Of a stretch of DNA of 64,000 bases, positions 2,982 to 53,418 are shown one piece after another (position 1 is the first letter of the stretch; the number at the start of each line of letters is the position of its first letter). This DNA comes from Candidatus Kaiserbacteria bacterium CG10_big_fil_rev_8_21_14_0_10_59_10 (GTDB taxonomy: Bacteria > Patescibacteriota > Minisyncoccia > Phycocordibacterales > UBA2100), in assembly GCA_002773285.1 (NCBI GenBank), contig PFBM01000021.1, positions 14,312 to 78,311 of the forward strand. The letters are read 5' to 3'. The position numbers and the translations under genes were made by a program. The notes beneath the pieces were generated by a model that saw nothing but the letters and a program-made list of their open reading frames with translations, was not told the DNA's origin and made no database searches.

Positions 2982-5076
2982 TCTTGGTGCCCTCCATCAT
3001 GAGTTTGCCGCAGTCCTTGCATATATTGCCAGTCGGACGTGCTTTCATCGTGAATTTGCATTCAGGATAATTTGAGCAGGCGAAAAAAGGCCCGAAGCGC
3101 CCGCGCTTCTCCACAAGCTGCCCCTTGCCGCATGACAGGCATGCCACGCCTGTGGAGTTTTGCGAATTTTCGTCCCGGCGCACGTATTTGCACTTCGGGT
3201 AGTTGCTGCATGCCACAAAACGCCCGAAGCGCCCTTCCCGCTCGATGAGCTTTCCGTCCTTGCACTCGGGGCACGGCTCGCCGAGGTCTTTCGGCGGTTC
3301 GATGATGCTGCCGTCCTCCTTGCGAGCGCCAAGGCATGTTGGAAAATTGGAGCAGCTCATAAAGCGCCCCGAGCGCGAGAGTTTGTATACCATTGGCGCG
3401 CCGCAAAGCGGACAGGGAAATTCCTCAGGTGCGTCGCCCATGTTGGTCAATTTCTCGATCTTCTCCTTGCCCTTAACCGCCTTTGCAAACGGTGCGTAGA
3501 ACGCGTGCAGCGTCTTTTCGTATTCGCGCGTGCCGGAAGCGATGTCGTCCAGCTCATTCTCCATTTCGGCCGTAAAGGTATCGCTTATATAGTCCGCGAA
3601 GTGATCTTCTATGAATGAGCTGACGACATCTCCCGTGTGCGTTGGAATAAGCGTGCGCCCCTGCTTTTCGACATACCCGCGGTCTTCAAGCGTTTTAATA
3701 ATGGAAGCGTACGTGGACGGCCGGCCGATGCCGCGCTTCTCAAGCTCTTTCACCAGCCCCGCCTCGCTGTAGCGCGAGGGCGGCTGGGTCGCCTTCTCTT
3801 CCGAGCGCGCTTCGACGAGCGTGAGCTCCTCCTCTGGGTTCGCTTTTGGCAGCTCCACGTCCTCACCGCGCGCCGCCGGGTCGGCCTTTAGCCAGCCCTC
3901 GAAAACGACGCGCGAGCCGGTGGCTGAAAAGTCGGGGATCGGCGAGCCCTCAGTGTTTGCGACTATCTTCGTGCGCAGAATCTTCGCATCTGCCATCTGG
4001 CTAGCGAGCGAACGCGCGCGTATAAGCGCGTACAATTTCTTTTGCTCATCGGTTGAGCCGAGGGAGCGCTTTGACGCGTCGGTGGGGCGGACTGCCTCGT
4101 GCGCTTCCTGCACGCTTTTTGAGCGGGACTTGTACTGGCGCGTAGAGAGCATCTCCGCGCCATACTCGCTCGACACGACGCGCGCAAGCTGCGTGAGCGC
4201 CTCACGCGAGAGAGTGGGGGAGTCGGTGCGCATGTAGGTGATGTGCCCCGCTTCGTACAATTTTTGCGCGATGCGCATCGTGCGCGACGGAGAGTAGCCG
4301 AGTCGCGTCGAGGCGGTCTGCTGGAGCGTTGAAGTGGTGAACGGCGCGCGAGGACTGCGGGATTGCTCCGACTCGTCAACGGAAACGACGCGCCACTGCC
4401 CCGCGCGCGCCTCTGCGACGATGCGCTCAGCTTCTTCGGCGCTTTTAGGCTCCTCCACGCACGTGGCGACAAAGCGTTCCTTCCTTGATGTTTCCAGCTC
4501 CGCTTCAAGCACCCAAAACGCCTCGGGCACGAATGCGCGTATCTCGCGCTCGCGCTCCATGAGTATGCGAAGCGCGGGAGATTGGACGCGGCCTGCCGAG
4601 AGGCCGTAACGGACTTTCTTCCATATGAGGCCTGAGAGGTCGTAGCCGAACAGGCGATCCAGCACGCGCCGTGCCTCCTGCGCTTTTACGAGCTGCATGT
4701 CGACGGCGCGCGGGTGCTGCAACGCTTCCTGGACCGCGCGTTCGGTTATTTCGTTGAACACGATGCGCTTCGGCTTGTTCAGTCCGATAGTGTCGGAGAC
4801 GTGCCACGCGATTGCTTCGCCCTCACGATCGGGGTCGGTGGCGAGGATGACTTCATCCGCCTTTTTTGCGGCGCGCTCCAAATCATGAATAACCCGCTCT
4901 TTCTCGGGCACGACCCGATAGCGCGGCACGAAACCGCCTTCGATATCGACCGCATCCTTGTTAGATTTCGGCAGGTCGCGAATGTGGCCCACGGATGCGC
5001 GCACCTCGTATCCTTTGCCGAGGTACTTCTCAATCGTCTTGGCCTTGGCCGGCGACTCTACTATTACAAGCTTCAT
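2923..5076 (-). CDS. topA: DNA topoisomerase I with C-terminal zinc-ribbon repeats
   Basis: MKLVIVESPAKAKTIEKYLGKGYEVRASVGHIRDLP Toprim start (internal Met 16 of the ORF-track ORF 2923..5121). Multiple C-terminal CxxC...CxxC zinc fingers. Confidence 0.9.
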   Translation of the reverse strand: MKLVIVESPAKAKTIEKYLGKGYEVRASVGHIRDLPKSNKDAVDIEGGFVPRYRVVPEKERVIHDLERAAKKADEVILATDPDREGEAIAWHVSDTIGLNKPKRIVFNEITERAVQEALQHPRAVDMQLVKAQEARRVLDRLFGYDLSGLIWKKVRYGLSAGRVQSPALRILMEREREIRAFVPEAFWVLEAELETSRKERFVATCVEEPKSAEEAERIVAEARAGQWRVVSVDESEQSRSPRAPFTTSTLQQTASTRLGYSPSRTMRIAQKLYEAGHITYMRTDSPTLSREALTQLARVVSSEYGAEMLSTRQYKSRSKSVQEAHEAVRPTDASKRSLGSTDEQKKLYALIRARSLASQMADAKILRTKIVANTEGSPIPDFSATGSRVVFEGWLKADPAARGEDVELPKANPEEELTLVEARSEEKATQPPSRYSEAGLVKELEKRGIGRPSTYASIIKTLEDRGYVEKQGRTLIPTHTGDVVSSFIEDHFADYISDTFTAEMENELDDIASGTREYEKTLHAFYAPFAKAVKGKEKIEKLTNMGDAPEEFPCPLCGAPMVYKLSRSGRFMSCSNFPTCLGARKEDGSIIEPPKDLGEPCPECKDGKLIEREGRFGRFVACSNYPKCKYVRRDENSQNSTGVACLSCGKGQLVEKRGRFGPFFACSNYPECKFTMKARPTGNICKDCGKLMMEGTKTIPERCSDKSCANHNPHKK

Positions 5077-5170
5077 ATTGCGTGATGTGCGCGGCGCGCA
5101 GGCCGTAGGATTACCACACAACTATATATCATGCAAAGCGCGGCACATGTTCACCGCGGTGCGTTGCGCG

Positions 5171-6025
5171 TTACCGAACGCGGACAAGACCGAGCTCTTC
5201 GGTGATAATACCCTTGATTTCCATCGTGCTGAGGAGCACGTTTGCCTCCGAGATAGGCATCGCGAGCGCGGAAATAAGTTCATCCCGCGTGCGCGGCTCG
5301 GAGAGCGCGGCGAGGACTCGGCGCTCTTCATTGCTAAGATCGCTATCGTCCCGCGCAGCAGCCGTGCGTTCAATGCCGAGTGCGCGCAGCACGTCCTCCG
5401 GCTCGGTCACGGGTGTCGCGCCGAGCTTGAGGAATTGATGCGTGCCGCGGCTTTCTGCGCTAAAGATGGAGCCGGGTACTACGAGAAGGTCGCGGTTATA
5501 TTCCGTCGCGAGCCGCGCAGTTATCAAGGAGCCGGAGCGCTCTTTTGCCTCAATGACGAGGGTTGCCCGGCACATGCCAGCCATAATGCGGTTGCGCTGC
5601 GGGAACGTGTAGTCCGCCGCCCTTTGGCTCGGCTCGAATTCCGAGAGGAGCGCGCCGCCCGCTTTAAGTATGTCCCGCGCGAGCGGAACGTTCGCCTTCG
5701 GGTATAGGACATCCCAGTCGAGTCCGGAGCCGGGAACGGCGACCGTAGGCAACCCAGCCGCGATAGCGGCTTTGTGGGCACACGCGTCCACGCCGTAGGC
5801 GAGTCCGCTGACAATTACCACGGGGGCGCCGCGCATTCCCTCTATAAGATGAGCGCAGGCCTGCCTGCCGTATTGCGTCATGGTGCGAGAGCCGACGACC
5901 GCGAGCCACGCGTTCTCGAAGCCGGGCAAAGAGCCGCGTACATATAACTTCGCCGGCATGTCCGGTATCTCACGCAGCGGTGGCGGGAAGGCCGCTGGGG
6001 AGAGCTTTGTCAGCTCAGCGTTCAT
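5171..6025 (-). CDS. dprA: DNA processing protein DprA/Smf. Start at Met29 of the track ORF; the GTG at 6109 is an alternative.
   Basis: Rossmann-like DprA core VVIVSGLAYGVDACAHKAAIAAGLPTVAVPGSGLD and a C-terminal winged-helix-like tail. Confidence 0.8.
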   Translation of the reverse strand: MNAELTKLSPAAFPPPLREIPDMPAKLYVRGSLPGFENAWLAVVGSRTMTQYGRQACAHLIEGMRGAPVVIVSGLAYGVDACAHKAAIAAGLPTVAVPGSGLDWDVLYPKANVPLARDILKAGGALLSEFEPSQRAADYTFPQRNRIMAGMCRATLVIEAKERSGSLITARLATEYNRDLLVVPGSIFSAESRGTHQFLKLGATPVTEPEDVLRALGIERTAAARDDSDLSNEERRVLAALSEPRTRDELISALAMPISEANVLLSTMEIKGIITEELGLVRVR

Positions 6026-13213: not shown

Positions 13214-13299
13214 CGGCGGGTGCGCATGGTGCTTAATCGGCACTACAGAAAGCGGCACGTATAGTGTCACATATACTCACCCGAATGGTCGGCCCATGT

Positions 13300-13632
13300 A
13301 TGAAAATAGAAATTTATTTCAATGATAAGGAACTGGAGCAGCGGGCGTCCTACGACCCGGAGGCGAGGGAGGAGCTAAGGAAGGCCGTCGCGGCAATTGC
13401 CATCTTGCACGCGCGGGATCTCGCTGAGGCGCGCGCACTGGACGAAAAATACGTGCCGCAGCTCGCAACGGCGGGGATGGGCGTGTTCGACCAGGCGTAC
13501 AATGTATACATGAAATATGGAGGCGTATTTGAAGAAACGACCGCGTTCGCGCCGTACTTCGGGTGGTGGGCGCGGCAGGCGATGATCGAGTATATCGGTT
13601 CGATACGCGCGCCAATCACGCGCGTAGAGTAA
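13300..13632 (+). CDS. Sigma-70 family N-terminal fragment (regions 1.2-2.2 only; possible pseudogene or remnant). Alternative upstream starts at 13264 and 13285.
   Basis: VFDQAYNVYMKYGGVFEETTAFAPYFGWWARQAMIEYIGSIRAPITRVE parallels the sigma-70 region 2.1/2.2 consensus ([26 protein letters not shown]...IRIPVHMVE). The ORF stops where region 2.3 would begin. Confidence 0.5.
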   Translation: MKIEIYFNDKELEQRASYDPEAREELRKAVAAIAILHARDLAEARALDEKYVPQLATAGMGVFDQAYNVYMKYGGVFEETTAFAPYFGWWARQAMIEYIGSIRAPITRVE

Positions 13633-45087: not shown

Positions 45088-46170
45088 ATGGAAGCGGCGA
45101 TAGTCGTTATACTGCTCGCCAACATAACGCTTTTGGCATACCTCATCTGGCGCGTGAGAAAGGGCGGCGGCGACGCATCGAGCCTCATGCTGCTCCAAAA
45201 TCAGCTGCAGGACCTGTCTCGTACAGTGGAGCAAAAGCTCGAGGGCGGCACGAACCGCATGTTCGAATCGATGAAGGCGCAGTTCGGCGAGTCGCAGCGC
45301 TTGGCATCGGATATCCGCGACTTGGTCGCAAAGCAGCTGACGGAAGTCGCGCGTGAGCAGACCAAAACCAACGAGGCCACCGCGCGCTTTATGACCATCG
45401 CGGAGCAGCTCGCGAATCTCGAAAAGGTATTGAAGCATCAGAAGCAGCGGGGGAACCTCGGCGAGGCCTCGCTTGAACTCATTTTGACGAATATCCTCGG
45501 CGGCTCGGGGACATTTCAAATGCAGTACCAGTTTCCCGGCGGAGAAACGGTCGACGCCGCCATATTCACTAAAGAAGGCATTATTCCCGTCGACGCTAAA
45601 TTTTCACTGGATAACTACAATCGGCTTCTGAGCGCGGTCGACGACGCGCAGCGCCTTGAGCTGGAGAAGGACTTCAAGAACGACCTCAAGCTTCGCATAG
45701 ATGAGTGCGCAAAATACGTGCGCGTGAAGGACGGCACGCTGCCGTTCGCGTTCATGTACATCCCGGCCGAAGCCATTTATTACGACCTTCTCATAAACGA
45801 GATAGGGTCGGTCAAGGTCAACACGCGGAATCTCATCGACTATGCGTACAACGAAAAGAAGGTGATCATCGTCTCGCCGACCACCTTTGCCGCGTATTTG
45901 CAATCGGTGCTCTACGGCTTTAAAGCATTCAAGATCGAGGAAACGGCAAAAGACATCGCGAAGAACGTCGAGAACTTGTCGCGGCACCTAAAGGCGTATG
46001 AGGATTATTACAAAAAACTCGGCTCCTCTCTCTCGACGACGGTAAACCACTACAACGCCGGCTCGAAGGAGCTCGGAAAGATCGACAAGGACGTACTGCG
46101 CATTACCGGTGAATCCGCAGCGCTTGACGCGCCTCTTTTAGAGAAGCCCGCGCTTGCCGACGAGAGATAA
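45088..46170 (+). CDS. rmuC: DNA recombination protein RmuC
   Basis: N-terminal TM + long coiled-coil, then C-terminal PD-(D/E)XK-like region (IPVDAKFSLDNY...FAFMYIPAEAIYY). Confidence 0.8.
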   Translation: MEAAIVVILLANITLLAYLIWRVRKGGGDASSLMLLQNQLQDLSRTVEQKLEGGTNRMFESMKAQFGESQRLASDIRDLVAKQLTEVAREQTKTNEATARFMTIAEQLANLEKVLKHQKQRGNLGEASLELILTNILGGSGTFQMQYQFPGGETVDAAIFTKEGIIPVDAKFSLDNYNRLLSAVDDAQRLELEKDFKNDLKLRIDECAKYVRVKDGTLPFAFMYIPAEAIYYDLLINEIGSVKVNTRNLIDYAYNEKKVIIVSPTTFAAYLQSVLYGFKAFKIEETAKDIAKNVENLSRHLKAYEDYYKKLGSSLSTTVNHYNAGSKELGKIDKDVLRITGESAALDAPLLEKPALADER

Positions 46171-46529: not shown

Positions 46530-47141
46530 TCAGCGCCTGTTCTCGAGCGCGCTTTTGAGTGTCTCGGCATCCGCATACTCCAACTCGCTGCCCGTCGAAA
46601 GGCCCCGCCCGAGCATCGTTATCTTCCATCCGTGCCGCGCCGCAAGCGCGGCAAGCGCGTCGCGGACATGAATGGCCGTGTAGTCGCCTTCTGGATTCGC
46701 CGGCAGGGCTAGAATGACCTCACGCAGGCCTGCCGATGCGCGCTCCTGTGCACGCGAGAGGAGTTCGCGCTCGCGCAGCGCCTTGGCCTTCTCGCTCGCA
46801 AGGGAGATGGTCCCTCCGAGCACGAAGTAATGGCCGCGATACGTGCCACTTCGCTCCAGGGCGGCGAGGTCCGCGTCGCTGGAGACCACGGCAAGCATCG
46901 ACGCGTCGCGTGCGGGATCGGCGCATAGCGCGCAGAGCCCCTTCGCGCCGGCGTGGTAGCGCATGCACGCATCGCACTGGTTGACGGTTGCGCCGAGTGC
47001 GCGTATCGAGTCGGCCAATTCGCGCCGCATAGAAGGCGAAGAGCGCAGCAAGAATTGCACGAACCGGTGCGCCTGGCGGGGTCCGATGCCGGGAAAGCGC
47101 GCAAACAACGTCGCTAACTTATCGAGCGCATCCATGTGCAT
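46530..47141 (-). CDS. recR: Recombination protein RecR
   Basis: LATLFARFPGIGPRQAHRFVQFLL (HhH); CDACMRY...C zinc finger; Toprim. Confidence 0.85.
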   Translation of the reverse strand: MHMDALDKLATLFARFPGIGPRQAHRFVQFLLRSSPSMRRELADSIRALGATVNQCDACMRYHAGAKGLCALCADPARDASMLAVVSSDADLAALERSGTYRGHYFVLGGTISLASEKAKALRERELLSRAQERASAGLREVILALPANPEGDYTAIHVRDALAALAARHGWKITMLGRGLSTGSELEYADAETLKSALENRR

Positions 47142-48517
47142 TAAAAGGGCTGCTCCACCTCCGCCTCTGGAGTAAAGTCGCCGAAATCGCTTTTCTCGAG
47201 TGAAATGAACGTGGTTTTCTCCTCATCAAAGCGAAGGTCAATTTTGCCAACCGGGCCGTTGCGATGCTTCTCGACGAGTATTTCCGCAATGCCCGTGCGT
47301 TCGCCTCCGTCCTGCATCTTATCCTCGCGATGAATGAACATGACGACATCGGCATCCTGCTCTATTGAGCCCGAGTCGCGCAGGTCGGAGAGGCGCGGCT
47401 TTCCGCGCCGCTGCTCGACGGCGCGCGACAGCTGCGAAAGTGCAAGGACCGGCACGTCCAGCTCGCGCGCCATCGCCTTAAGTGAACGGGAGATTTCCGT
47501 CACCTGCTGTACGAGCGAATCGGACGAGCGGGTGGTTGAAGGCGTAATGAGCTGCAAGTAATCCACGATGACGAGGCCGAGGCCCTTTTCCATTTTGAGC
47601 CGTCGTGCGACAGAGCGCATCGTGAGTACCGTTGAGGACGGCTTATCATCGATAAATATTGGCGCGTCGGAAAGCGTCGCAATGGCGTGCTGCAGACGCT
47701 CGTACTCATCATCTTTAGATATCTTGCCCGTGCGCAGCCGCCATGAATTGACGCGGGCCTCTGCGGCGAGCATGCGGTCAACCAGCTGCTGGGAACTCAT
47801 CTCGAGCGAGAAAATGCCCACCGCCGTGTTGTGTTTGGTCGCGCTCTGACGCGCGATGTCGAGCGCGAGGGCGGTTTTACCCATGGAAGGGCGGGCAGCG
47901 AGTATGACAAGGTCCGAGCGCTGCAGTCCTGCGAGCAAGTTGTCGAGCTGTGGGAAGCCCGTCGGTACGCCGCGTATCGAACCGTCATGCTGCTGCAGCT
48001 GCTCCAAACGCTCCCACGCGTCGCTGAGTGACTCCTTGATGGTAGAGAATGTCCGCAGGCTCGGCGCGTTCGCGACGGCGAACACCGCTTGCTGCGCCTC
48101 ATCAAGTATCTGTTCTATCTCTCTATCCTCGGCAAACCCGAGTTCGGCGATGCGCCCAGCGACGTCAATAAGAGAGCGCAGTACGTACTTCGACTGCACG
48201 TTCTCCGCATAGTGGCGCGCGCTACCCGGAGAAGCCGCGGTAGACACCAATTCAGACAGGTATGCGCCGCCGCCGATACCCGCAAGCTGCTTTCGTTCCT
48301 TCAGTTTGCCCGAAAGCGTCACGAGGTCGATCGGCTCGCCCTTGCCGTGGAGCGCGAGCATCGCGTCGAAGATAGTGCGGTGCTTGCCTGCATAGAATGA
48401 ATCAACGCCGACGACGTCCGCGACCTCGAACATCGCATTCGGGTTAAGCATGAGGGCGCCGAGGAGCGCGCGCTCCATATCAACATCCTGCGGTGGGACT
48501 CGAGCGCTTTGTGCCAT
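47141..48517 (-). CDS. dnaB: Replicative DNA helicase DnaB
   Basis: PQDVDMERALLGALMLNPNAMFEV N-domain; RecA-like core (ILAARPSMGKTALAL; Walker B VIVDYLQLI). Confidence 0.9.
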   Translation of the reverse strand: MAQSARVPPQDVDMERALLGALMLNPNAMFEVADVVGVDSFYAGKHRTIFDAMLALHGKGEPIDLVTLSGKLKERKQLAGIGGGAYLSELVSTAASPGSARHYAENVQSKYVLRSLIDVAGRIAELGFAEDREIEQILDEAQQAVFAVANAPSLRTFSTIKESLSDAWERLEQLQQHDGSIRGVPTGFPQLDNLLAGLQRSDLVILAARPSMGKTALALDIARQSATKHNTAVGIFSLEMSSQQLVDRMLAAEARVNSWRLRTGKISKDDEYERLQHAIATLSDAPIFIDDKPSSTVLTMRSVARRLKMEKGLGLVIVDYLQLITPSTTRSSDSLVQQVTEISRSLKAMARELDVPVLALSQLSRAVEQRRGKPRLSDLRDSGSIEQDADVVMFIHREDKMQDGGERTGIAEILVEKHRNGPVGKIDLRFDEEKTTFISLEKSDFGDFTPEAEVEQPF

Positions 48518-48614
48518 AGCACGATTCTATCACCAAGCGCCCCCACGCACATGCGCGGCACGCGCCGCCATGTGGGACTTACGTGTGGACAATGCGGCAC
48601 TCAGCCGTATAGAT

Positions 48615-48643
48615 TTGACAAGGGCGAAGGCGCCTGCTAAAAC
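48615..48643 (+). promoter_or_regulatory. Sigma-70-like promoter candidate (TTGACA-N17-TAAAAC) upstream of 48696 in the dnaB/48696 divergent region
   Basis: Read directly: ttgacaagggcgaaggcgcctgctaaaac; about 50 nt upstream of the ATG. Confidence 0.3.
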
Positions 48644-48695
48644 TACGTCACGCATAAAGACATTTGTCATAAAAACAGTCAAATCCACCATCGCT

Positions 48696-49718
48696 ATGCT
48701 TCAATTCACTACGCGCAGCGTCACGAAAGAGCTCCTTTCCTCTCTGCCTGAACGCTCACGGCGAGTCGTTGCAGAGCGTTTTGGCCTCGGCACGAGCGCG
48801 CGGCGGCGCACGCTGGAGGCAATTGGCAAGGAGTATGGGGTGACACGGGAGCGCATACGCCAGATAGAGAACCACTCCCTCGCAATGGTCCGAGAATCGG
48901 AGGCATACGGCCGCAACATGCACGCGATCGATGACCTCAAGCGCGCCGTGCATGAGCTCGGCAGCATCGTATCCGAGACGGCTGCTCTGGCCGCTCTCGC
49001 TACGTCGGAGGCCGAACGCAACCATGTGCTCTTTCTTCTCACGGTAGGGCACCACTTCGAGCACAGGCCGGATAATCCCGACTTTCACGCACGCTGGCAC
49101 GTGGACCCGGCGCTTGCCGAGGCGGTAGAGCGCTCGCTTTCGCGCTTGCATGAGGAGCTGAGCGCCGAGCGGCTCGTTCCAGAGAGTGATTTTGTGCAGC
49201 AGTTCGTACGCATTCTGAAAGAGGAGGGTGTGCGTGCACGTTCCGAAGAGGCGCCGTCTCGCTGGCTTGCCATTGCCAAGCGTATTGCGCGCAACCCGCT
49301 TGGTGAGTGGGGTAGGAGCGATTCGCCGCACGTGCGCATCAAGAACACGCGTGACTTTGCGTACCTCACACTGAAGCGTCACGGCTCACCCATGCACTTT
49401 ACCGAAGTGGCGAAGGGCATTCGCGAGCTGTTCGATAGGAACGCGCACCCCGCAACAACGCACAATGAACTTATTAAGGACAGCCGATTTGTGTTGGTCG
49501 GGCGCGGCCTGTACGCCCTTAAGGAATGGGGGTACGCGCCCGGCGTCGTGCGCGAGGTCATCAAGAACATCATCGCGGAAGAGGGTCCGCTGTTGCGCGA
49601 AGACATAATCGAGCGTGTGAAGCGCGAGCGCTACGTCAAAGACGCAACTATTGCCGTGAATCTCCAGAGCGACGCCTTCACGCGCGGCGCGGACGGCCGC
49701 TACAGCATCGCCTCATAG
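48696..49718 (+). CDS. Protein with an N-terminal sigma-70 region-4-like HTH domain fused to an uncharacterised C-terminal domain of about 270 aa
   Basis: LSSLPERSRRVVAERFGLGTSARRRTLEAIGKEYGVTRERIRQIENHSLAMVR is a close match to sigma-70 region 4.2. The rest is unassigned. Confidence 0.6.
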   Translation: MLQFTTRSVTKELLSSLPERSRRVVAERFGLGTSARRRTLEAIGKEYGVTRERIRQIENHSLAMVRESEAYGRNMHAIDDLKRAVHELGSIVSETAALAALATSEAERNHVLFLLTVGHHFEHRPDNPDFHARWHVDPALAEAVERSLSRLHEELSAERLVPESDFVQQFVRILKEEGVRARSEEAPSRWLAIAKRIARNPLGEWGRSDSPHVRIKNTRDFAYLTLKRHGSPMHFTEVAKGIRELFDRNAHPATTHNELIKDSRFVLVGRGLYALKEWGYAPGVVREVIKNIIAEEGPLLREDIIERVKRERYVKDATIAVNLQSDAFTRGADGRYSIAS

Positions 49719-51215: not shown

Positions 51216-51258
51216 TGTGCCGTATGCAACCCATGCGTATAAGCGCCCGCAGCTCTCT

Positions 51259-52302
51259 ATGAGTGAAGATAAGAAACTGGAAGAGGCATTCGAGGAGTAC
51301 ATGGACGGCACTCTTTCGCGCTGGTCGCGCGCGGAGGAGTATCTCAGCCGCAATGCGAACAGACGCACTGCCGCCATCCTTCTCGCCGTCTTCGTGTTCG
51401 CGCTTGCGCTGTACACATCCGTATTCTCGCCACCGCACGATTTTCCTACCGAGGCGATCGTCGATGTGCCGCAGGGCGCATCGGTGCGCGACATCGCAGA
51501 GACGCTCGAGCGCGAGAGGATCGTACGCTCCGCGCTGTGGTTCCGGCTACTCGTGCGCTTCACGGGCAACGAGCGGAGCTTGCACGCGGGAGAGTATTTG
51601 TTCGAGGAACCGACGGGCCTATGGGGCGTAGCGCAGGCGCTCTCCCACGGCCGCTACGGTATGGAACCGCGGCGCGTACGAATACCGGAGGGCGCGATGG
51701 TGCGCGATATAGCCGAGCTCTTGGACGAGGAGTTGTTGCGATTCGATAAAGAGCTCTTTACGGCGAAAGCGCTCCCGTACGAGGGCCGCCTCTTTCCGGA
51801 CACGTACTTTTTCCTGCCAAGCGCGAACGAAGATACTGTGCTTGAGGCACTGCGGCAAAACTTCGATGCACAGCTTGCTCAGCTTGAGGAAGAAATTGCG
51901 GCGTTCGGACGCCCGCTCGAGGAGGTGCTCATCATGGCATCGATACTGGAGCGCGAAGCGCGCGACCACGAGGACAGAAGGCGGATAGCCGGCGTCTTGT
52001 GGCGACGGCTTGACGAAGACATGCTGCTGCAGGTCGATGCCGTTTTTCTCTACTCGATCGGGCGCTCGACGTTCCAGCTCACATTGGAAGACCTGCGCTC
52101 CGATTCGCCCTACAACACGTATCGCTACAAAGGCCTCCCGCCCACGCCCATCGGCAGTCCGAGCCTCAGCTCCATACGTGCCGCCATCACCCCGATAGAC
52201 GGCGGATACTACTACTATCTTGCGGACAATACCGGCGTTACGCACTACAGCAGGACGTACGAAGAGCATCTGCGGAAAAAGAGATTGTATCTTGGAACAT
52301 AG
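51259..52302 (+). CDS. mltG: Endolytic murein transglycosylase MltG (YceG-like)
   Basis: N-terminal TM, LysM-like (PQGASVRDIAETL), YceG core (FPDTYFF...; ILEREAR; YNTYRYKGLPPTPIGSPS). Confidence 0.8.
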   Translation: MSEDKKLEEAFEEYMDGTLSRWSRAEEYLSRNANRRTAAILLAVFVFALALYTSVFSPPHDFPTEAIVDVPQGASVRDIAETLERERIVRSALWFRLLVRFTGNERSLHAGEYLFEEPTGLWGVAQALSHGRYGMEPRRVRIPEGAMVRDIAELLDEELLRFDKELFTAKALPYEGRLFPDTYFFLPSANEDTVLEALRQNFDAQLAQLEEEIAAFGRPLEEVLIMASILEREARDHEDRRRIAGVLWRRLDEDMLLQVDAVFLYSIGRSTFQLTLEDLRSDSPYNTYRYKGLPPTPIGSPSLSSIRAAITPIDGGYYYYLADNTGVTHYSRTYEEHLRKKRLYLGT

Positions 52303-52371
52303 CTACGAAGCGGGGTCTATGACCGATGCAGTGCTTGCATTCGAGGTCGGGGGACTACAAGCTACGGGTCT

Positions 52372-53418
52372 ATGCGCGTGTATGTAGGACTCTCCGGCGG
52401 CGTCGATTCGGCTGTGGCCGCCGCGCTCTTGAAAAAAGCGGGGCACACAGTAGTGGGTTGCTTTATCAAGATATGGCAGCCCGAGTTTATCGAGTGCGCA
52501 TGGCGAAAGGACCGCGTTGATGCCATGCGCGTGTGCGTCGCTCTCGGTATCCCGATGCGGGAACTCGATCTGTCGGAGGAGTACAAACGCGACATTGTCG
52601 GATACATGCGTGAGGCCTACGCGATGGGCTGTACGCCGAACCCCGATGCGTTGTGTAACCGCTCCATCAAATTTGGCGCGTTCGCAGCGTGGGCTCGGCG
52701 CGAGGGAGCGGAGTGCATTGCGACAGGCCACTATGCGCGAATACTGCAAGAAGGCGGACGGCATGCGCTCTACAGGGGAAAAGATTTGCAAAAAGACCAG
52801 TCGTATTTCTTATGGATGCTGCGCGAGAGAGACCTTGCGTTTGCGCAATTTCCGCTCGGCGGCATGCGAAAGAGCGATGTGCGTGCACTCGCGAAACGCT
52901 ATGCGCTACCAGTCGCCGATAAGCCCGACAGTCAGGGACTGTGCTTCGTGGGAGAGGTATCGATGCGCGATTTTTTGTCACGCTTCATCCGAGTAGAAAA
53001 GGGATCCGTGCTTGACGAATCCGGCCGTTCGATAGGGGCACATGACGGCGCGGCACTCTATACCATCGGGCAGCGCCACGGATTCCGCCTCTTCAGTAGA
53101 GAGGCGGCTTCTGTGCCCGCGTACGTCTCGAGTACGAGCGTATCCGACAATACGATAACGGTGACTAGGGACAGGGAACGGTGCATGACTACATGCGTGA
53201 CCATTCGCTCCATGCACTGGCTCGCAGGCGAGCCGCCTCGCTTCCTGCATGCGCATGCGCAGCTTCGCTACCGAGAGGCGCCGGTAGGAGTCGCGTGTAC
53301 CCGTGTGAATGATTCTGCGTTTCAGCTGCAGCTGGAGAAGCCGCGCATCGCCGCGCGTGGCCAATCGCTCGTCCTGTATGAGGGCGAGAGAATCCTAGGT
53401 GGAGGCATCATTGCATAG
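52372..53418 (+). CDS. mnmA: tRNA-specific 2-thiouridylase MnmA
   Basis: VYVGLSGGVDSAVAAALL (PP-loop SGGxDS); CNRSIKFGAF; catalytic Cys. Confidence 0.9.
   Translation: MRVYVGLSGGVDSAVAAALLKKAGHTVVGCFIKIWQPEFIECAWRKDRVDAMRVCVALGIPMRELDLSEEYKRDIVGYMREAYAMGCTPNPDALCNRSIKFGAFAAWARREGAECIATGHYARILQEGGRHALYRGKDLQKDQSYFLWMLRERDLAFAQFPLGGMRKSDVRALAKRYALPVADKPDSQGLCFVGEVSMRDFLSRFIRVEKGSVLDESGRSIGAHDGAALYTIGQRHGFRLFSREAASVPAYVSSTSVSDNTITVTRDRERCMTTCVTIRSMHWLAGEPPRFLHAHAQLRYREAPVGVACTRVNDSAFQLQLEKPRIAARGQSLVLYEGERILGGGIIA

Follow-up and report, generated by a model that had tools for sequence, protein, structure and literature searches.

Isolated region 4 of the σ70-family factors (σ4) is known to bind −35 promoter DNA (PDB 1ku7), and a σ factor may also consist of two subunits, as does SigO-RsoA of Bacillus subtilis. 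Further from transcription, the γ domain of FtsK reads FtsK-orienting polar sequences (KOPS), and TraM docks on TraD. Another module of interest, the HARE-HTH winged helix, is the fold that anchors the δ subunit to the β′ shelf/jaw of RNA polymerase (RNAP) (PMC11156646, PMC7749165); it also occurs in fusions with restriction endonucleases and with N6A methyltransferases and was predicted to discriminate modified bases (PMC4738411). Here, we describe a gene of Candidatus Kaiserbacteria bacterium CG10_big_fil_rev_8_21_14_0_10_59_10 whose 340-amino acid (aa) product carries σ4 at its N-terminus, followed by a chain of winged helices that includes a HARE-HTH domain. The gene lies in a stretch of 64,000 nucleotides (contig PFBM01000021.1, positions 14,312 to 78,311; G+C content 59%) that is referred to below as the window.

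The ultra-small Patescibacteria, or candidate phyla radiation (CPR), have tiny genomes in which few regulators can be recognised, and hardly any genetics exists for them. The family to which the protein belongs is conserved over several CPR lineages and reuses the housekeeping −35-reading module outside a σ factor.

Results

σ Region 4 without Regions 2 and 3

The Pfam Sigma70_r4 profile matches residues 13–66 of the protein with an E-value of 1.7e-12 (47.1 bits; cut-off 24.1). An initial annotation of the window had placed a region 4 match at residues 5–65; the match itself holds, and its numbering was off by about nine residues. The same annotation noted that regions 2 and 3 are missing, and four kinds of comparison agree with it. 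With Pfam, no Sigma70_r2 or Sigma70_r3 match to the protein was obtained at E ≤ 1. NCBIfam matches are confined to the C-terminal, region 4 ends of the RpoD, RpoS and RpoH models and lie far under the full-length cut-offs. A profile of 60 homologs, when compared with the PDB, matches only region 4 of SigA/RpoD chains (E 1e-13). Finally, BLASTP against a canonical 360-aa RpoD that is encoded in a dnaG-rpoD pair of another Patescibacteria genome (L062) aligned residues 12–66 only, with 55% identity over 55 aa. Of 127 diverse representatives of the family (30–48% identical to the query), 126 likewise showed neither region 2 nor region 3; the family conservation values given below are those of this set.

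Of the parts that make up a σ70-type σ factor, the protein therefore has region 4 and has neither region 2, which is responsible for core binding, −10 recognition and melting, nor region 3. No second open reading frame (ORF) with region 4 and no rpoD were found in the 64-kb window. By its domain content, the protein is a σ4-only protein and not a σ factor. The initial annotation had allowed that the C-terminal part might turn out to be diverged or permuted regions 2 and 3. This part is made up of winged helices, as described below, and on the basis of its fold together with the Pfam, NCBIfam, PDB profile and BLASTP results we reject a diverged or permuted ordinary σ factor.

The residues of the module that correspond to E. 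coli σ70 residues R562, L573, T583, R584, E585, R586, R588 and Q589 are R28, L40, T50, R51, E52, R53, R55 and Q56. We take these eight positions to be the −35 contacts seen in the σ4/−35 DNA structure 1ku7. Each of them is at least 90% conserved in the 127 representatives, and R55 is invariant. The situation is different past the recognition helix, where the stretch KLRHPSRS..LRDYL is 60–90% conserved in 67 RpoD proteins from many phyla and 10–40% conserved in the family. Substitutions of two σ70 residues, R541 and L607, were used to disrupt the contact of σ4 with the β flap (bioRxiv 10.1101/2022.01.24.477500). L607 falls within the C-terminal stretch just mentioned, and both positions are unconserved in the family, which speaks against RpoD-like docking on RNAP. 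It appears that selection has kept the DNA-reading face of σ4 and not its RpoD-type RNAP-docking face.

The helix that follows region 4 (positions 48,936–48,959, residues 81–88) has the sequence LKRAVHEL and resembles the β flap-tip helix, LLRAIFGE. Foldseek alignments to chimeras of SigA region 4 and the flap tip (8d5v_B and 7kug_D) reach about 110 columns. The LKRAVHEL stretch is unconserved across the wider family. The helix could be an intramolecular flap mimic that caps σ4.

A Chain of Winged Helices

The rest of the protein, initially annotated as being without a recognisable family, contains a HARE-HTH domain at residues 222–278 that scores above the Pfam threshold (27.6 bits; cut-off 25.9). 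The same domain is matched by 123 of the 127 representatives, with a best E-value of 1.6e-17. In the AlphaFold2 (AF2) model (mean predicted local distance difference test score 84.5, predicted template modelling score 0.62), four helix-strand-helix-helix-strand-strand units are located C-terminal to region 4, at approximately residues 75–137, 138–210, 215–280 and 284–340, i.e., the model shows a chain of winged helices.

Conservation peaks at the 4.2 recognition helix, at HARE-HTH with its lead-in (approximately residues 195–283) and at the last winged helix (WH4). HARE-HTH, with the motif TxHNELIKDxRFVLVGRGxYAL.EWGY, is more strongly conserved than any other part. The median net charge is +4 for region 4, +5 for HARE-HTH and +4 for WH4, and the middle of the protein is variable and neutral to acidic. 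Since conserved basic parts, region 4 and HARE-HTH/WH4, stand on both sides of a variable middle, the protein would have two conserved nucleic-acid-binding heads and a spacer. The two middle winged helices are probably this spacer or a region of protein contact.

Start Codon and Family

The plus-strand frame that ends at 49,718 is open since 48,450. The initial annotation was correct as to the strand and the stop codon, but the start that it proposed, 48,540, falls in the intergenic spacer; the actual start is the ATG at 48,696 (Table 1). This ATG was chosen since a length of 340 aa and an MLxF start are common to nearly all homologs. The N-terminus of the protein is MLQFTTRSV, nearly all listed homologs have 337–345 aa (mostly 340) and an alike N-terminus, and at 15 orthologous loci the frame opens merely 10–25 codons ahead of region 4.1. 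The 340-aa protein has no hydrophobic or transmembrane-like segment and is soluble by this measure.

A search with the full-length protein listed, besides a single protein that is 100% identical to it, over 100 relatives with 64–70% identity and 99–100% coverage, nearly all within the same length range. Those with names belong to Kaiserbacteria, Paceibacterota or Parcubacteria, and the annotations are "hypothetical" or "sigma factor-like helix-turn-helix DNA-binding protein". With the C-terminal 274 aa as a query, 1054 clusters (50%-identity representatives) were obtained at E ≤ 1e-3, of which 312 remained when the limit was set to E ≤ 1e-30. The clusters are mostly 330–360 aa long and the match begins at about residue 70–120, and the architecture must therefore be common to them. 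A scan of contigs with one genome per species, which yields taxon names and not prevalence since its region 4 pattern also picks up RpoD genes, gave 13 full-length matches among the matches listed, all 13 from Patescibacteria (Kaiserbacteria, Paceibacterota, Parcubacteria, Doudnabacteria, Peregrinibacteria, "Saccharibacteria" and unclassified). In other phyla, again among the matches listed, region 4 alone was matched, and the genes were rpoD. The protein thus fits, by full-length similarity, length and both Pfam domains, a Patescibacteria family of about 340 aa with Sigma70_r4 and HARE-HTH. Judged from its sequence, it is unremarkable within this family, which is large, uncharacterised and, among the matches listed, known only from Patescibacteria.

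One of the 127 representatives bears a Bac_DnaA_C domain (E 1e-22) and two are overlong, at 494 and 552 aa; either fusion or an artefact of gene calling may account for these. A phage search gave no match to the family and a plasmid search gave one weak partial match only, and a mobile-element origin was rejected. No Rfam RNA family was found between positions 46,000 and 52,500. In the literature searched, we found no studied member of the family and no paper tying HARE-HTH to CPR, and a Saccharibacteria transposon sequencing paper makes no mention of such a protein. Bacterial HARE-HTH proteins with features of σ factors and of the α subunit were reportedly noted by Aravind and Iyer in 2012.

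A Promoter with a Perfect −35 Hexamer

As the initial annotation had pointed out, TTGACA-N17-TAAAAC is present upstream of the gene, and comparison of orthologs backs it as a promoter. Its composite promoter score of 10 out of 12 is equalled by 1.2% of shuffles. A TTGAC(A/T/G)-N16/17-TAnnnT-like element is present 47–126 nt upstream at 16 of 19 orthologous loci. A perfect TTGACA is found upstream at 11 of the 19, where 1.09 would be expected, and upstream of 8 of 86 other genes (9%) that are located at the same loci and are preceded by a gap of 60 nt or more (Fisher p 1.2e-5). A consensus scanner overlooked this promoter because its −10 element is without the final T, and reported TGGACA-18-TAGATT (48,586–48,615) instead. 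By these counts, the gene has its own predicted promoter with an unusually consensus −35 element, and the perfect hexamer could mean either a strong promoter or a site for the gene's own σ4 domain.

Throughout the 64-kb window, 11 TTGACA sites are present on both strands versus 19 ± 4.4 expected, a scarcity that would fit a tendency to avoid spurious −35 elements. In addition to the −35 element, an inverted TTGAC(T/G/A) is located 47–63 nt 3′ of it in the window and at loci L001, L003 and L085. Over the 19 loci, TTGAC on the minus strand occurs 7 times against 2.8 expected, which is marginal. The inverted hexamer could be a second site for the σ4 protein, or it could be there by chance.

Linkage to a DUF8128 Membrane Protein Gene

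A DUF8128 gene is located directly 3′ of the σ4 gene in the window and at 17 of 18 other informative loci, down to those with 29–35% identity, where the genes upstream are secD-secF. The order of the two genes is kept while the flanks vary, with dnaB or secDF upstream and yceG or an ATPase gene downstream. The gaps between them are 16–66 nt at several loci, and the scanner found no terminator between them in the window. The DUF8128 protein, encoded also at L009–L016 and L086–L088, has an N-terminal hydrophobic hairpin (approximately residues 45–100) and a cytoplasmic domain (approximately residues 115–476) with a fold like that of the VirB4/TrwK N-terminal domain and of EccE; no Walker A motif or P-loop was found in it. 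Its homologs are all labelled "hypothetical", and one of them, from Candidatus Kaiserbacteria bacterium CG10_big_fil_rev_8_21_14, is 100% identical to the window protein. VirB4-N-terminal-like proteins called "TrsD" are abundant in Patescibacteria (PMC12102498), and the DUF8128 protein may be related to them. We also note that its C-terminal tail, ...GLxRIPxTKAEPPPNLP, is very conserved and resembles a docking motif. Residues 411–461 of the homolog from L013 (7,079–8,494) give a weak NCBIfam match to the region 4 end of a σ factor (E 4e-4, 19.8 bits), which is not seen in the window protein.

On the other side, the divergence from dnaB that was initially annotated is borne out, with a spacer of 178 nt. 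The recR-dnaB arrangement is common only to close Kaiserbacteria relatives (L001–L003), and a functional link to dnaB or recR was rejected on account of this limited synteny. Past DUF8128, yceG(mltG) and mnmA come next, at distances of 1 and 69 nt (51,217–53,418 in the window; also L001, L003 and L088), which suggests one long operon running from the TTGACA promoter through yceG-mnmA. Farther downstream in relatives, genes for an Mrr-type nuclease with an ATP-cone and for a PD-(D/E)XK protein are found.

Table 1. Features of the σ4 gene and its surroundings. Positions are those of the window unless a locus is named.
Feature	Position	Strand	Evidence or remark
Coding sequence, 340 aa, σ70 region 4 then four winged-helix domains	48696..49718	+	ORF, Pfam, AF2 model
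Promoter: −35 TTGACA (48615–48620), N17, −10-like TAAAAC (48638–48643), about 52 nt 5′ of ATG	48615..48643	+	Sequence, ortholog comparison
Inverted −35-like hexamer TTGACT in 5′ leader, 14–19 nt ahead of ATG	48677..48682	−	Sequence comparison
σ70 region 4 (residues 13–66; 4.1 helix and 4.2 helix-turn-helix TLEAIGKEYGVTRERIRQIE)	48732..48893	+	Pfam Sigma70_r4
Two poorly conserved winged-helix-like modules (about 75–137 and 138–210), neutral to acidic	48918..49325	+	
HARE-HTH winged helix (residues 222–278), net basic	49359..49529	+	Pfam
Fourth winged helix, C-terminal (residues 284–340), conserved, basic, weak DUF3320 similarity	49545..49715	+	Pfam, AF2, conservation
dnaB, divergent neighbour	47141..48517	−	Pfam DnaB and DnaB_C
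DUF8128 partner gene, 476 aa	49785..51215	+	Pfam DUF8128 in homologs; gap after σ4 gene 66 nt
Small ORF (110–122 aa), C-terminal 32 residues like σ region 2.3	13264–13632	+	Pairwise alignment
ATPase genes at other loci	L010 8394–10154; L013 8516–10411; L011 8884–10716; L009 5550–7277; L014 ~4690–5960		

Discussion

We favour the reading, to which we give a probability of roughly 45%, that the protein is an RNAP-independent binder of −35 hexamers that autoregulates or occludes its own operon and works with the DUF8128 membrane partner. A −35-occupying DNA binder is the best reading because the −35 residues are at least 90% conserved in a family that is otherwise about 30–35% identical. We infer that the σ4 module reads TTGACA-type hexamers using the residues of the housekeeping σ factor, and that HARE-HTH and WH4 form a second nucleic-acid-binding head about 130 residues away, across the two variable winged helices. 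The protein would then occupy −35-like elements, foremost the perfect TTGACA of its own promoter, where presumed competition with region 4 of RpoD would result in autoregulation or occlusion of the operon that the gene heads. The DUF8128 protein, co-transcribed according to this scheme, would act jointly with the σ4 protein and may tether or modulate it.

Several considerations weigh against such a binder. The perfect −35 element may just mark a strong promoter, and the loss of the RpoD-type tail is possibly compatible with some other RNAP contact; since the HARE-HTH fold anchors δ to β′, an RNAP-bound role is conceivable. Were the protein to bind every TTGACA, its regulation would be global and not local. 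As to DUF8128, neighbouring genes of small syntenic genomes can stay together even where the products do not interact physically.

A less probable alternative, analogous to FtsK γ reading KOPS or to TraM docking on TraD, is that the protein is a DNA-recruiting adaptor that would hand DNA to a split motor resembling VirB4 and a type IV coupling protein (T4CP), with DUF8128 as the anchor and a VirD4/TraD/HerA-type ATPase. Genes for a soluble ATPase of this type (575–631 aa) follow DUF8128 at L009, L010, L011, L013 and L014, i.e., at 5 of about 18 loci, and their products are 52–65% identical among these distant CPR lineages. The ATPase matches Pfam TrwB_AAD_bind, TraG-D_C, DUF87 and a treble-clef zinc finger, the latter being C-terminal with the pattern CxxC-x17-CxxC; its similarity to TraD/VirD4-like and CedD models is weak, and all NCBIfam conjugation models stay far below their cut-offs. 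Together with DUF8128, it looks like a split VirB4/T4CP. In a 2025 survey, VirD4-like T4CP homologs were found in 2,918 of 3,035 Patescibacteria genomes; 148 of 5,713 T4CP homologs were near virB4, and exaptation for other functions was raised (PMC12102498). The two conserved basic heads of the σ4 protein would suit an adaptor as well. However, neither the window nor the Kaiserbacteria/Paceibacteria-level relatives have the ATPase gene at this place, and no ATPase homolog was found in the 64-kb window or at L001–L008 and L012, save for a fragment in L005. Moreover, −35-type specificity would be odd for a translocase loading site, and the family was not met on phages and gave a single weak partial match on plasmids.

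Less probable than an adaptor is an accessory subunit of RNAP, with HARE-HTH seated on the β′ shelf/jaw as in δ and with σ4 either replacing or competing with region 4 of RpoD at the flap or capturing −35 DNA. The polar residues T254, H256, N257, E258, D262 and R270, located in the third helix and the wing of HARE-HTH, are invariant and would fit a universal partner such as RNAP. Yet the score with the δ model TIGR04567, 26.9 bits, falls short of the cut-off of 42, an acidic C-terminal tail is missing, and the flap positions R541 and L607 are unconserved along with the RpoD C-terminal motif. Joint docking is also made doubtful by the positions of the flap tip and the β′ jaw, which lie on opposite sides of RNAP, and an ordinary RpoD is present in CPR genomes, as in L062.

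It is improbable that the protein reads modified DNA, with HARE-HTH sensing N6-methyladenine or another mark and σ4 reading the −35 element, for methylation-dependent regulation by analogy with GcrA. The known fusions of HARE-HTH to restriction endonucleases and N6A methyltransferases (PMC4738411) and the Mrr-type nuclease gene located a few genes downstream in relatives would agree with this. On the other hand, the family is without a linked methyltransferase and without a conserved methylation motif near the promoter, and the prediction for HARE-HTH is contextual.

The initial annotation had also proposed a σ N-terminal fragment at 13.3 kb and, in combination with it, a split or modular σ factor. 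The ORF at this location has no Pfam match even at E 10 and no σ match in the PDB, and belongs to one of two homolog clusters in 5.8 billion proteins, the other one being 53% identical and 111 aa long. What remains of the claimed fragment is a local likeness: the stretch FAPYFGWWARQAMIEYI..IRAPI aligns with FSTYATWWIRQSITRAI..IRIPV of RpoD with 12 of 32 residues identical (pairwise E 7e-5) and recalls the region 2.3 motif FSTYATWWIRQ...IRIP. As aligned, this likeness is real but short, and the ORF could be an orphan gene, a σ remnant or a chance likeness. That the σ4 protein is one half of a two-subunit σ with this ORF, or a diverged or permuted ordinary σ, is very improbable: despite the aligned stretch and the existence of two-subunit σ factors such as SigO-RsoA, a split σ is unsupported because an ORF with two homolog clusters, compared with 1054 for the C-terminal query, cannot match the distribution of a CPR-wide family, and the ORF is moreover 35 kb distant and the other 274 aa of the σ4 protein are winged helices, not σ2 or σ3.

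To return to the −35 binder, its architecture of σ4, two winged helices, HARE-HTH and a fourth winged helix, with its linkage to a membrane protein resembling type IV secretion components, combines known kinds of components. The protein may serve as a general promoter-level regulator acting through σ4 mimicry. It may also supply the DNA recognition that is missing for the T4CP-like ATPases, which are widespread in CPR bacteria and suspected of exaptation (PMC12102498). A more ambitious combination, a Patescibacteria-wide three-part machine composed of a TTGACA-reading σ4 protein and a membrane-anchored split motor (DUF8128 and the zinc-finger ATPase), is given less credence by us than either the adaptor or the RNAP subunit, and more than the reader of modified DNA. 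If true, it would allow DNA to be handled at the membrane in a sequence-directed way, for instance to segregate chromosomes, to send DNA to the host or take it up from there, or to tether promoters, and the near-universal "orphan" T4CP homologs in CPR bacteria would be accounted for. With its small size, its solubility and an explicit predicted DNA target, the TTGACA of its own promoter, the σ4 protein lends itself well to experimental work on CPR biology.

Comparison with Known Systems

The C-terminus of SelB (WH1–4), RPC62/C82 of RNA polymerase III and UFL1-DDRGK1 also contain chains of four winged helices; here, the likeness is at the level of the fold only, with 7–13% identity and no functional implication. 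As in SigO-RsoA, σ4 is present in a polypeptide without σ2. Unlike in that system, no co-encoded and co-distributed σ2 partner was found for the σ4 protein among the window ORFs and homolog clusters.

The order of the genes resembles that of operons encoding extracytoplasmic function (ECF) σ factors and membrane anti-σ factors, in which a σ-related gene precedes one for a membrane protein, and the promoter bears the motif expected for the first product. The membrane partner of the σ4 protein differs in having the fold of the VirB4 N-domain and EccE and no anti-σ domain. Furthermore, since the σ4 protein is without σ2, no DNA-melting holoenzyme is expected, unlike with ECF σ factors.

With the δ subunit (RpoE) of Firmicutes, the σ4 protein shares HARE-HTH, its third winged helix, which is like the N-domain of δ. 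HARE-HTH is, however, internal (residues 220–279) and not N-terminal, its score with the δ model is below the cut-off as given above, and the chain ends in a winged helix that is folded and net basic, not in a polyanionic disordered region.

FtsK γ and TraM-TraD offer a parallel of another kind, in that DNA recognition by an HTH or winged helix is genetically coupled to a membrane-anchored ATPase module of the FtsK/HerA/VirD4 superfamily. In our case, the DNA reader is a separate protein and the ATPase is adjacent at a minority of the loci.

Among the closest systems is region 4 of the group 1 σ70 factors (RpoD/SigA). The σ4 protein differs from these in that its region 4 is N-terminal, precedes winged helices and is not accompanied by regions 1.2, 2 and 3, and in that the RpoD C-terminal motif and the R541 and L607 positions are unconserved in its family. 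What is shared is the fold and the sequence family, with 55% identity to the CPR RpoD and 36–48% to solved SigA region 4 structures, and the residues that contact −35 bases and backbone are all retained.

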